DNA of 32,000 nt from Candidatus Heimdallarchaeota archaeon (GTDB lineage: Archaea; Asgardarchaeota; Heimdallarchaeia; Heimdallarchaeales; Heimdallarchaeaceae), in assembly GCA_030668875.1 (NCBI GenBank), contig DAOVER010000001.1, positions 1 through 32,000 on the forward strand. The letters are read 5' to 3'. Under the pieces are notes generated by a model. That model worked only from the letters and a program-made list of their open reading frames with translations. It was not told the origin of the DNA and did no database searches. This document shows, piece after piece, positions 4,723-8,809 of the stretch. How positions within the stretch are numbered: the first letter of the stretch is position 1; each line of letters opens with the position of its first letter. The position numbers and the translations under genes were made by a program.

Positions 4723-6417
4723 ATGGTTTCAATAAAAACAAGTTATACAAAGATGAAAGAATTACTTGGGATAGATGTTACTATCGAAGAATTAGATGAT
4801 CTTCTAGCATTTGCAAAGTCAGAAATCGATGATTTTGTAGAAGAGGAAGATATGCTAGTAATTGACATAAAAACTAGTAACAGGCCTGATCTATGGTGTC
4901 CTGAGGGAATGATAAGAGAAATCAAAGGCATTCTTGAGCAAGAAGCTGGAATTCCTCAATATGAAGTCAAAAAAAGTGACTATAAAGTAGTTGTAGATTC
5001 AGCGCTTGCATCTACTCGTCCATACATCGCATGTGCTATAGCAAAGAATCTTGACCTAACTGATTATTCGATCAAACAGCTAATGCAACAGTCAGAGAAA
5101 ATTGATAACTCTTATGGAAGAAAACGAAAACGTTCCTCTATTGGAATGTATAACCTTTCAATGATTGAATCACCAATTGAATACAAGGTAATTGATAAAT
5201 CACACAAATTCGTGCCTTTAGAGCATGAAGAAGAAATGGACTTGCCAACAATATTGGAAGAACATGAGAAAGGGCTTGAATTTGGTGATATTGTGAAAGG
5301 ATACGGACATTACCCAATCCTTCTTTCAGCTAATGGTACAACTCTTTCTCTCCCTCCTGTGATAAATAGTAACGATGTAGGAAGAATAACTGAAGATACC
5401 AAAGAATTTCTCATTGAAGTAACTGGAACAAATTACGAAACAGTTAATGTTGTTCTCAATATACTATGTCAAACCATGGTGGAATATGGTTCAGATATCT
5501 ATAGTGTTGAGATAGTCTACCCTTCAGAAATCAGAAAAGAAAATGATATAACTCCACTTCTAGAGAAGGAAGAAATAACTGTTAATTTGGACAAGATTAA
5601 CAAATATCTAGGTGTCAAACTAACTTCTGATGAAGGAATAGAAAAATTAAGGAAAAGAAGATTTGAATGTAAAACCATTGGCAAGACCAATCTTGAAGTG
5701 AAAATTCCACCTTACCGAAAGGATATTTTACACTGGGTAGATATAGCAGAAGAAATTGCTATAGCTTTAGATTACAATAAAATCGGTGTAACAAAATGGA
5801 AAGTTATTACTAAAGGAGGGCTTCTACCAGAAACTGAAAGCGAAAATAAGGTGCGAAATATTCTAGTAGGCTCTGGAGGTATCGAGATATTCTCTAATAT
5901 ACTAACTGATCCAGAAATATTGACAACCAATGTTAATATGACGAAAGTAGATTTAGTCAACCTGCAAAATCCTGTTAGTTTAACATACAGTGTGTTAAGA
6001 GACAAACTTTTTCCTCTCTTAATCAGTGTTCTGTCAAAAAATACACATGAAACCTATCCTCAATCAATTTTTGAAGTTGGTGAGGTTGTTAAGATTCTAG
6101 GTAAAAGAGTTCTAACTCAGACGAATGCGTCTTATGGTTTTGCAGGAGCAGAGGCTAGCTTCGAAGATGTTCATAAGCGATTACACATGATGCTAGATCT
6201 GTTAGATACAGAGTACAAAATCGAATCGATATCACACCCAGCTTTTACAGAAGGGAGAAGTGGCAAAATAATAATTGCTGAAAAAGAATGTGGTATTATT
6301 GGAGAGATTCATCCTAGTGTGTTGGAGCTGAACCAAATTTGGGTTCCAGTTGTTGTCTTCGAAATCCAATTACCCTATATACCTACATTGAACTGTAAAA
6401 AGAAATTCACTGATTAA
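4723..6417 (+). CDS. pheT: Phenylalanine--tRNA ligase beta subunit (archaeal type)
   Basis: NRPDLWCPEGMIREIKG, RPYIACA, LSLPPVINS, PPYRKDILHWVDIAEEIAIA, NPVSLTYSVLR, GEIHPSVL. Directly follows pheS; SD aggtga. Confidence 0.97.
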   Translation: MVSIKTSYTKMKELLGIDVTIEELDDLLAFAKSEIDDFVEEEDMLVIDIKTSNRPDLWCPEGMIREIKGILEQEAGIPQYEVKKSDYKVVVDSALASTRPYIACAIAKNLDLTDYSIKQLMQQSEKIDNSYGRKRKRSSIGMYNLSMIESPIEYKVIDKSHKFVPLEHEEEMDLPTILEEHEKGLEFGDIVKGYGHYPILLSANGTTLSLPPVINSNDVGRITEDTKEFLIEVTGTNYETVNVVLNILCQTMVEYGSDIYSVEIVYPSEIRKENDITPLLEKEEITVNLDKINKYLGVKLTSDEGIEKLRKRRFECKTIGKTNLEVKIPPYRKDILHWVDIAEEIAIALDYNKIGVTKWKVITKGGLLPETESENKVRNILVGSGGIEIFSNILTDPEILTTNVNMTKVDLVNLQNPVSLTYSVLRDKLFPLLISVLSKNTHETYPQSIFEVGEVVKILGKRVLTQTNASYGFAGAEASFEDVHKRLHMMLDLLDTEYKIESISHPAFTEGRSGKIIIAEKECGIIGEIHPSVLELNQIWVPVVVFEIQLPYIPTLNCKKKFTD

Positions 6418-7366
6418 TCGGAAGTTTTGTCTTCTTCTTTTTCTTTTCTACTTTTTTCTCTTGTTTATCAAGTACTACTATTCTCTCCCAGACTTTATCC
6501 ATAATTTTTTTCAATGCCTCACCACTCTCGGATGTTTCAATTATTGGGATTTTCGCTTTCGTTGCTTCTTCAACAAGGTAAGTTTGAATATTCCTAATTT
6601 CAGAAAAGGCATCAATATACCGTTCAGATTTTCTAAATTCTACTTCGGTGCCTCTCGCTTTGATTCTTCTTTTATGTTCCTCTTTCTCTTCGAGATATAA
6701 GAGAATCATTATAACATGAGCTTCTGCTAATACTGAAGGATCTAGTATATTTGGTGCTAAGTGAACACCTTCAATGATTGAATTTTCTCTAGAATAAAGA
6801 GCAGTTTGAATTGCAGATTCTACTCCAACAATAACATGACGACATTGTTCCTCATATCCTACTATTGATTGTCTCAGAATAGGATTAATTTTAGGTTTCA
6901 ACATTTTGTAAGCTTCATAGCTGCTTGAATGAAGCTCTGGGATTAGTTTTGCTGAAATAGTTTGTCTAAGAACTTGTCTTATCATATCTGTTCCTATAAT
7001 GTGTGAGATTTCTAATCTTTGGGATAACTGTGAAGCTATAGTACTCTTTCCAATACCTGGAACTCCAGCAAGCAAAATGATAATTGGTTTATAACTTTGC
7101 TCTCCCTCAAATACGCTATATCTCTCTGCCATTTTAGGATCAAAATTATTAATTTCGGAAGTTATAATATGAACTAGCTTTTCTTTATCTATGGGATCTG
7201 AAGCCTCACTAACAATATGTTCCACTTTACTCGCTATTTCAAAAATGAGGTTGGAATCCATACCAATAGAATGTAAAGAAGTTGACAATATGCCCTTTGA
7301 GAAATACTCGTACCTATCCTTTCTAAGTCGAATTTTAAGGAAATTATCAAGTTGATCTACATTCAT
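6407..7366 (-). CDS. 2-phosphoglycerate kinase family protein (ATP-cone + P-loop), paralog 1
   Basis: N-terminal FSKGILSTSL ATP-cone-like segment, LLAGVPGIGKST Walker A, IIGTDMIRQVLR, PELHSSSY, IIEGVHLAP. Basic C-terminal tail. Confidence 0.85.
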   Translation of the reverse strand: MNVDQLDNFLKIRLRKDRYEYFSKGILSTSLHSIGMDSNLIFEIASKVEHIVSEASDPIDKEKLVHIITSEINNFDPKMAERYSVFEGEQSYKPIIILLAGVPGIGKSTIASQLSQRLEISHIIGTDMIRQVLRQTISAKLIPELHSSSYEAYKMLKPKINPILRQSIVGYEEQCRHVIVGVESAIQTALYSRENSIIEGVHLAPNILDPSVLAEAHVIMILLYLEEKEEHKRRIKARGTEVEFRKSERYIDAFSEIRNIQTYLVEEATKAKIPIIETSESGEALKKIMDKVWERIVVLDKQEKKVEKKKKKTKLPINQ

Positions 7367-7534: not shown

Positions 7535-8431
7535 ATGGAAGCAGAACGTCAAATATTTATCAAAGATAGAGACAAAAGATTATTTTCTCGAGGAATATTA
7601 GCTAAAAAACTTAGGTTGTTAGGAATTCCTTCTTCAACTGGTTATGAAATTTCTATTCAAGTATATAATGAGATCTCTAAACCTCAAGAAACAACCATTG
7701 AAAAAGAAGAACTTGATAACATTGTTTTTGATATTCTCGAATCCAATTATAACAAAGAATGCGCAGATAAGTATTTGCTTGTTGAAAGGTGGAAAACATC
7801 AAACATACCTTTATGGATTCTCATTGCGGGGGCAATAGGCGTTGGAAAAAGCACTCTATCACAGAAAATTGCTGGTGACCTTAACATTCAACATGTTGTA
7901 GGAACCGATGTAGTGAGAGACATTTTACGGAAAATATTATCAGTTGAAGTTATGCCAGAATTACATTCGCCCTCTTATAGTGCTTATAAGACTCTGCGAC
8001 CTATTTATAGTAGTAGATTTGAGGAAGTGATACTAGGTTTTGAAAATCATTCTAAATATGTTAATCTGGGTGTCGAAGCTGTACTTTCGAGAGCATCTAC
8101 TGAATCTGTATCTATCGTAATTGAAGGAGAACATCTTCTACCCGCTTTGCTTGATGAAGACATTCTCTCACAAACAAATGTATTATATATGACAATTTCA
8201 GTTCCCGACCCCTTGTTACATAAGGAAAATCTAAGTTCACAGTACACAAAAGAAAAGGATGTTTTAATTAGTCATTTTCATGATATAAGAAAAATACACG
8301 AACACATCGTTAGTGAAACACGAATTCGAAAGTTACCTATTGTTGAAACTAGTAAAGATTTAAACCCACTAGATACCGTAAGAAAACTTGTCGTAGACAA
8401 AATCGTTTCTATGGTTACAACTAAATCGTAA
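7535..8431 (+). CDS. 2-phosphoglycerate kinase family protein (ATP-cone + P-loop), paralog 2
   Basis: LFSRGILAKKL, LIAGAIGVGKST, VVGTDVVRDILR, PELHSPSY, IVIEGEHLLP. Colinear with the paralog at 6407-7366. Confidence 0.85.
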   Translation: MEAERQIFIKDRDKRLFSRGILAKKLRLLGIPSSTGYEISIQVYNEISKPQETTIEKEELDNIVFDILESNYNKECADKYLLVERWKTSNIPLWILIAGAIGVGKSTLSQKIAGDLNIQHVVGTDVVRDILRKILSVEVMPELHSPSYSAYKTLRPIYSSRFEEVILGFENHSKYVNLGVEAVLSRASTESVSIVIEGEHLLPALLDEDILSQTNVLYMTISVPDPLLHKENLSSQYTKEKDVLISHFHDIRKIHEHIVSETRIRKLPIVETSKDLNPLDTVRKLVVDKIVSMVTTKS

Positions 8432-8455
8432 TTCTTTAAAACTCATTTGAATAAA

Positions 8456-8521
8456 TAGCATAGCCAATGATGTAGTTGCAACGATCTGAAGAATGATGAT
8501 CGACTTTTGGCTGAGGCGCTA
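8456..8521 (+). ncRNA. Box C/D guide sRNA (2'-O-methylation guide)
   Basis: C box ATGATGT 8467-8473; 12-nt guide AGTTGCAACGAT; D' CTGA 8486-8489; C' ATGATGA 8493-8499; 11-nt guide TCGACTTTTGG; D CTGA 8511-8514. Terminal stem GCC (8463-65)/GGC (8515-17), extended by TAGC/GCTA. Wholly intergenic. Confidence 0.8.
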
Positions 8522-8533
8522 AATGTGATTTGA

Positions 8534-8809
8534 ATGACAAAATACTGTTATATCCATGAATCAACAGAATCTTTCAAAGAGTGTGATGGTTGTGGGGCCG
8601 ATATTTGTCATGATTGTGCTGAGACTTACTGGCATACTAATGCGATTTCTTCAATGTTTTTACCAAAAAAAACAGAAGAACAGAAATTAATTTTATGTCC
8701 AAAATGCTTGAAAAAGGCAAAACGTAAAAATGCATGCATGACTTCCTTCTTATTGATTATGGTTATTGGTTTTATCGGTCTAACTATTCTTCTAGCTCGT
8801 TCAGGATAG
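8534..8809 (+). CDS. Small B-box-like zinc-finger protein with C-terminal TM anchor
   Basis: C-x2-H-x8-C-x2-C-x4-C-x2-C (CYIH...CDGC...CHDC), a later CPKC, then hydrophobic CMTSFLLIMVIGFIGLTILLA. Confidence 0.65.
   Translation: MTKYCYIHESTESFKECDGCGADICHDCAETYWHTNAISSMFLPKKTEEQKLILCPKCLKKAKRKNACMTSFLLIMVIGFIGLTILLARSG

Follow-up and report, generated by a model that had tools for sequence, protein, structure and literature searches.

The window analysed here, a stretch of 32,000 nt from a Candidatus Heimdallarchaeota contig, has a gap of 102 bp between the stop codon of one open reading frame (8431) and the ATG of the next (8534), and within this gap, at 8463-8517 on the forward (+) strand, lies a 55-nt archaeal box C/D sRNA of which all the expected parts can be read from the sequence. 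Upstream of it is a divergent pair of paralogous P-loop (AAA_18-type) genes at 6407-7366 (-) and 7535-8431 (+); further family members also have this pair ahead of the sRNA, though Ca. Heimdallarchaeum does not. Downstream is an ORF of 91 aa (8534-8809, +), which is Cys/His-rich and C-terminally hydrophobic. An initial annotation of this DNA had placed a complete C/guide/D'/C'/guide/D layout in a 102-bp intergenic gap; we find every part of that layout in the sequence, and our measurement of the gap agrees.

Architecture of the sRNA

The RNA is closed by a terminal stem in which GCC (8463-8465) pairs with GGC (8515-8517). Box C, AUGAUGU (8467-8473), ends in U instead of A, as it does in most of the genus, and is followed by the 12-nt D' guide AGUUGCAACGAU (8474-8485), whose fifth base upstream of box D' is A8481. 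Box D' (CUGA, 8486-8489) and box C' (AUGAUGA, 8493-8499) are separated by the loop AGA (8490-8492). The 11-nt D guide UCGACUUUUGG (8500-8510), with U8506 as the fifth base upstream of box D, leads into box D itself (CUGA, 8511-8514). All of these features lie on the + strand. The arithmetic by which the initial annotation picked the fifth guide base upstream of D or D' (the N+5 rule) is correct. Its closing stem holds in part: the inner GCC/GGC pairing is conserved, but the proposed outer pairing of 8456-8459 with 8518-8521 is not conserved in relatives.

Together with the stem, boxes C and D have the geometry of a canonical K-turn (3-nt bulge, tandem G-A, then U-U and G-C), while C' and D' form a predicted K-loop. 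The locus thus has what is expected of an archaeal box C/D sRNA: boxes C and D with a terminal stem, D' and C' with a short loop between them, guides close to 12 nt (12 and 11 nt) and a total length within the usual range of about 50-60 nt. The D' guide also holds an 8-nt palindrome, GUUGCAAC (8475-8482), so that the guide is identical to part of its own target and two copies of the sRNA could pair guide-to-guide; we found no sign that this palindrome matters.

Putative promoter and downstream ORF

A TATA-like element, TTTAAAA (8435-8441, +), lies 28 nt 5' of the terminal stem and is a candidate promoter. The block TTCTTTAAAA, which starts directly behind the stop codon of the preceding gene, shows almost no variation across 24 genomes of the genus; it stands at a constant distance from GCC even though the 20-nt stretch between the two diverges in sequence. 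Similar A/T boxes stand at equal distance in other genera and in the sister family. This pattern fits an archaeal TATA box that would place the start of transcription near the stem.

On the 3' side, a Shine-Dalgarno-like GTGAT (8525-8529, +) begins about 7-8 nt after the end of the sRNA, and GTGAT and the ATG are both conserved in the genus. Since these signals fall within 16 nt of the sRNA (the distance from its end to ATG 8534), and since no oligo-T terminator was seen between the sRNA and the start of the ORF, co-transcription of the two is plausible. Synteny of this ORF with the sRNA extends to each of the five genera that make up the family, but the ORF is absent beside the sister-family orthologue. 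Its product has an N-terminal B-box- or RING-like zinc-binding pattern, with only faint Pfam matches, and looks tail-anchored, given its hydrophobic C-terminal tail.

Conservation in related genomes

The initial annotation had proposed conservation of the boxes in related genomes as a check on its reading, and both the boxes and the guide cores proved invariant. BLAST returned one strong match in each of 24 genomes of the genus, the window's own included, and a covariance model built from these matches found the sRNA in 29/29 family genomes besides the window's own; its weaker matches outside the family are noise or different C/D sRNAs. The sRNA is also present in two of the three sister-family genomes. 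When 185,579 genomes, one per species, were scanned with a pattern, there were 28 archaeal matches, all with the same sRNA, and one bacterial chance match. By title, 24 of the 28 are Heimdallarchaeota or Heimdallarchaeum, with AB_125, Ca. Heimdallarchaeum endolithica PR6 and Ca. H. aukensis PM71 among these 24, and four are Thorarchaeota or a non-specific archaeon. These titles bear out the attribution to Asgard archaea in the initial annotation.

Within the genus, the invariant parts are, in order, GCC, the UGAUG of box C, the D' core UUGCAACGA, CUGA, the UGAUGA of box C' (its first base varies), the D core CGACUUUU, CUGA and GGC, and the D' core UUGCAACGA is invariant across the whole family (f1). 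Between the invariant boxes D' and C', the loop is hypervariable among relatives, and the two flanks and the base beside D' (U, C, G or A across the family) vary as freely. The terminal stem is paired in 100% of 27 distinct sequences, with compensatory double changes in two of its three pairs, in an alignment that was itself fitted to the covariance model.

Chance expectation, model scores and partner proteins

Across the 3.23-Mb genome, a strict pattern of boxes, spacing and a 3-bp stem has this locus as its sole match, and five shuffled genomes gave none. A relaxed box/stem scan, which required a 4-bp stem and hence missed this locus, gave one weak additional candidate on another contig and none in the shuffles.

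Searched at gathering thresholds, the whole window has no Rfam match. Below them, the generic Pyrococcus C/D model RF00095 (snoPyro_CD) matches the locus with 33.8 bits (genome-wide E of 3.7e-5), the second-best match in the genome; the alignment runs end to end (model positions 1-58) and takes in boxes C, D', C' and D and the terminal stem, although the guides differ. The gathering threshold of this family is 45 bits, and because the model was built from Pyrococcus sequences a score below it does not count against membership of the C/D class; pipelines that depend on Rfam gathering scores would miss this sRNA. Many further C/D families match more weakly at the same coordinates when E-value thresholds are used. 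The minimum free energy (MFE) fold of the locus is no better than that of shuffles (z -0.16), which is normal for K-turn RNAs, since a good score in MFE folding is not to be expected of them.

The proteins that such an RNA would need are encoded in the genome: fibrillarin (307 bits) and Nop5 (Nop, 212 bits) by adjacent genes on the contig of the window itself, and L7Ae (93.9 bits) elsewhere. We also searched public RNA runs for the locus, and no run containing it was listed.

Genome-wide, snoPyro_CD has only two good matches, this locus and one on contig C95, and the genome seems to carry very few box C/D RNAs. The C95 locus (73248-73306, -), outside the window, is a second box C/D sRNA candidate and the best match to the generic model, at 41.3 bits. 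It has a GGC/GCC stem, a variant box C (AUGACGA) and a degenerate C' (UGUUGA), and a quick scan gave no clear rRNA target for its guides.

Predicted targets in 16S rRNA

The genome is a MAG in which our search found no 16S or 23S rRNA gene, and the targets were therefore read on the 16S rRNA of relatives. Positions are given in E. coli numbering, counted from the CCCGUC and AAGUCGUAAC motifs, which we take to be its landmarks. The numbering rests on conserved landmarks rather than on a full structural alignment, and it agrees with the alignment in PMC4644070.

On the congeneric 16S, the D' guide matches GUCGUUGCAAC at 1405-1415 over 11 contiguous pairs, of which 10 are Watson-Crick and one is G-U, with its fifth base facing U1409, and the predicted duplex energy is -16.8 kcal/mol as against -10.7 for the next-best rRNA site. 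The D guide forms nine contiguous Watson-Crick pairs with CAAAAGUCG at 1489-1497, and here the fifth base faces A1492. Its duplex (-11.9 kcal/mol) is the best 16S site, and the only all-Watson-Crick match of 9 bp; the site is invariant across the family. The two targets, separated by 73 nt, belong to the two opposing strands at the top of helix 44. In the rRNA of relatives, both guides are complementary to a site with the target opposite the fifth base. When shuffled guides were run against 16S and 23S, the observed match was equalled in 0.9% (D') and 5.3% (D) of trials.

Pairing involves guide positions 1-11 (D') and 2-10 (D). Position 1 is a G-U wobble in the D' duplex and a G-G mismatch in the D duplex, and the duplexes stop at position 11 or 10, respectively. 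Structures of archaeal C/D RNPs show a duplex limit of roughly 10 bp, which the lengths seen here match. The initial annotation had predicted targets from the full-length guides and had proposed a search of 16S, 23S and tRNA. Run on relatives' rRNA and on 24 tRNAs, that search leads to U1409 (D') and A1492 (D), both in 16S; the complements of the full-length guides are not found exactly in rRNA. In the window's own genome these full complements have one additional 12-mer and three additional 11-mer exact matches, about the number expected by chance from a composition estimate.

Other targets were considered and set aside. Two 23S sites come near the D guide's 16S energy (-11.3 and -11.2 kcal/mol), and the 23S alternatives for this guide, at about 500, 2257 and 3023, need G-U pairs or bulges and vary within the genus. 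Among the 24 tRNAs found with aragorn, the best duplexes (-12.2 kcal/mol with a bulge, and -9.8) are weaker than the 16S sites.

Four metagenome runs contain the window at full word share and are a possible source of it. On the congeneric 16S, the 16S contigs from these runs cover both target sites and leave them unchanged, differing in this region at only four positions, in distal helix 44. These contigs are not attributable to this MAG, and their agreement with both target sites is supportive only.

Two other features of the 16S were observed in passing. Position 1408 is G in the relatives' 16S of this family (L002 and others), as it is in eukaryotes and many Crenarchaeota; bacteria have A. 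One congeneric 16S (G002, locus L159, about 90-159) carries an insertion of ~68 nt right after GUCGUAA, near E. coli 1500, and in metagenome contigs of related 16S this insertion is missing or replaced. An rRNA intron is one possible explanation, a variable insert another.

Covariation of guides with the 16S rRNA

The D' guide selects 1409 in every genome that has both the sRNA and a 16S gene (12/12). The sister-family orthologue (G026 and G030) has a different terminal stem and different guides, and the 16S of that family reads GUCGCUCGAGG and GAGAAGUCGU, with C-G in place of U-A at 1409-1491. Its guide changes restore pairing at 1409, 1411, 1414 and 1415 (D' guide) and at 1491 (the other guide), with position 1412 left uncompensated. 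Within the family itself, in genome G042, a C-to-U change at 16S 1415 is matched by G-to-A in the guide. We take the covariation in the sister family and in G042 as strong evidence that both guides have been selected for pairing with the two strands of helix 44.

The register of the D guide is less constant. By the N+5 rule it points to A1492 in three genera, the window's included, to A1493 in Ca. Heimdallarchaeum and the sister family, and to G1494 in the genus of G043; the D core is unchanged between genera, and what differs is the number of bases from the core to box D. Guide indels that shift targets have been described in Pyrobaculum (PMC6009581). This difference in register between genera argues against selection for one exact methylated nucleotide on this strand. 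Only the site of the D' guide is constant, so methylation at 1409 seems to be what is selected, and the D guide may mainly hold the partner strand and methylate whichever purine falls in register.

Discussion

The locus had initially been read as a box C/D methylation guide, and this reading is upheld by the features of its sequence, by conservation throughout the family and by the presence of genes for all three partner proteins. We consider it very probable that 8463-8517 is a canonical archaeal double-guide box C/D sRNA that acts on helix 44 of 16S rRNA in the manner outlined below. It would most likely direct ribose methylation of 1409 and of a decoding adenosine, beside the decoding site. 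The prediction is firm for 1409 and soft for the methylation by the D guide, whose register differs between genera.

We infer transcription, RNP assembly and the methylations from these features, and can propose how they might fit together. Transcription would be driven by the TATA-like box ~28 nt ahead of the sRNA, which might form the leader of the small ORF that follows it. Boxes C and D would fold into the K-turn and C' and D' into the K-loop, to be bound by L7Ae, a Nop5 dimer and two fibrillarins. With the D' guide on 1405-1415 of pre-16S, one fibrillarin would be brought to the ribose of U1409, and with the D guide on 1489-1497, on the opposite strand, the second would be brought to A1492. 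In the mature ribosome the two strands that the guides address are base-paired to one another (U1409-A1491), so the sRNP would have to meet the top of helix 44 unfolded; it could act on it, or transiently hold it open, during assembly of the small subunit. Decoding involves the 2'-OH groups of A1492 and A1493, and for this reason methylating either of them could be harmful. That the decoding adenosines are indeed 2'-O-methylated under guidance of this RNA (A1492 in the window's genus, A1493 in Ca. Heimdallarchaeum and the sister family), together with U/C1409 across the internal loop, is a proposal that we put forward tentatively and regard as somewhat unlikely. If true, it would mean that the very nucleotides by which the codon-anticodon helix is read naturally carry a modified ribose, and it would supply a dedicated canonical guide for Nm1409, the mechanism of which has been left open in other archaea.

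Other readings of the locus have to be weighed against this one. That short box motifs in AT-rich intergenic DNA have simply matched by chance, with no gene present, is scarcely credible. The MFE fold equal to shuffles and the lack of an Rfam family at gathering score would suit such a reading, but the strict pattern has a single match in the genome and none in the shuffled versions, and the selective pattern of a guide RNA in 29/29 family genomes, together with covariation with the target, refutes it. A more substantial alternative is that the element acts mainly in cis, as a K-turn leader through which L7Ae or the sRNP controls translation of the 91-aa ORF, with rRNA guiding secondary or absent. 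The short distance to ATG 8534 with no oligo-T terminator seen in between and the synteny of sRNA and ORF in all five genera are what such a leader would show; co-transcription of sRNA with mRNA is documented (PMC6009581), and binding of L7Ae to K-turns in archaeal mRNA leaders has been proposed (PMC5539422). However, guides are superfluous in a K-turn regulator, and here the cores of both are kept invariant and covary with the 16S rRNA. Moreover, the sister-family orthologue keeps both guides in a different neighbourhood, where the 91-aa ORF is not beside it, which disfavours a purely cis-regulatory role. We therefore think it improbable that regulation in cis is the main function, while noting that leader and guide roles are not exclusive.

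There is a real possibility that the sRNA has a single methylating function, with only the D' guide modifying its target (N1409) and the D guide serving as a helper for the 3' strand of helix 44, as an orphan or as a guide for 23S. The D register slides by 1-2 nt between genera over an unchanged pairing core, shifts of target caused by indels are known for other guides (PMC6009581), and the D duplex is short (9 bp), with 23S sites at ~2257 and ~3023 similar to it in predicted energy. The 16S site of the D guide is nevertheless its only all-Watson-Crick match of 9 bp, is family-invariant and lies directly opposite the D' target; the D guide of the sister family follows the A-to-G change at 16S 1491; and the 23S alternatives vary within the genus. 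Boxes C' and D are, in addition, canonical, so the site should be catalytically competent. We favour the double-guide reading, in which both guides address helix 44.

Predicted guides for helix 44 were called sparse in a survey of seven species, which lists sR129 of S. acidocaldarius and sR13 of N. equitans for 1408 and sR5 of M. maripaludis for G1494 (PMC4644070). Seistrup and co-workers measured 2'-O-methyl groups at 1408 as well as at 1409, at stoichiometric levels in N. equitans, and observed them in I. hospitalis too (PMC5389701). The closest parallels to the sRNA described here are N. equitans sR13, I. hospitalis sR56 and S. acidocaldarius sR129, each of which has one guide for the same 16S segment, 1405-1415, in the 5' strand of the helix 44 top. 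By the canonical N+5 register, however, these three point to 1408, whereas the present sRNA points to 1409. The second guides differ as well: that of sR13 is directed to A1534 in the 3' tail and that of sR56 to U1380, sR129 has no prediction, and here it is the opposite strand of helix 44 that would be bound. Apart from the boxes, we could detect no homology between their sequences and the present one, which comes from a different lineage (Heimdallarchaeia). Neq sR13 is likewise a double guide that pairs with 1405-1415 in the 1408 register, and its authors, who propose a role in the timing of folding of the 16S 3' region, termed the mechanism at 1409 unclear (PMC5389701; PMC4644070).

The measured Am1409 of N. 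equitans and Cm1409 of I. hospitalis are on the same nucleotide as is predicted here, one that abuts A1492/A1493 (PMC5389701). In neither of those organisms, the only archaea in which Nm1409 is known, did the search for guides yield an sRNA whose canonical register falls on 1409 (PMC5389701). The present sRNA has that register, and its methylation is a prediction. On the other strand, M. maripaludis sR5 is a predicted guide for 16S G1494, in the 3' strand of the helix 44 top (PMC4644070), and the G043 orthologue of the sRNA described here likewise points to G1494. M. maripaludis sR5 comes from a methanogen, and the register in the window's genus is A1492 rather than G1494. In bacteria, 1409 is modified by a type II TlyA methyltransferase, which makes 2'-O-methyl C1409 at the subunit interface; unlike the sRNA described here, TlyA is a stand-alone protein enzyme that works without a guide RNA, and it also methylates C1920 of 23S (PMC5778110).

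The sRNA is thus ordinary in build and constitutes a new family of archaeal box C/D sRNA. Full-text literature searches turned up no catalogue of box C/D sRNAs for Asgard archaea. Box C/D guides are the archaeal counterparts of eukaryotic snoRNAs, and Asgard archaea are the closest known archaeal relatives of eukaryotes. One of only two good C/D matches in this genome would, if our reading is right, be aimed at the most sensitive spot of the small subunit, the helix 44 top, which frames the decoding adenosines, and would offer a canonical guide candidate for 1409, at which methylation has been measured elsewhere with no known guide. It would also be a clean case of a single sRNA addressing the two strands of the same rRNA helix, and as such is relevant to the view that sRNAs of this kind are chaperones of rRNA folding. 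The prediction that follows is testable, namely Um1409 and Am1492 in the window's genus, or Am1493 or Gm1494 in its sister genera.

Finally, we looked for the D-guide motif among 399 genomes of the phylum. Outside the family and sister family, 16 matches were in the target orientation as against 12 in the reversed control, and these matches are mostly chance. Two small Asgard groups (G243, G246, G254 and G267; G310 and G314) share identical C'-guide-D strings with CGACUU, which may be further C/D sRNAs that pair near 16S 1494-1497.
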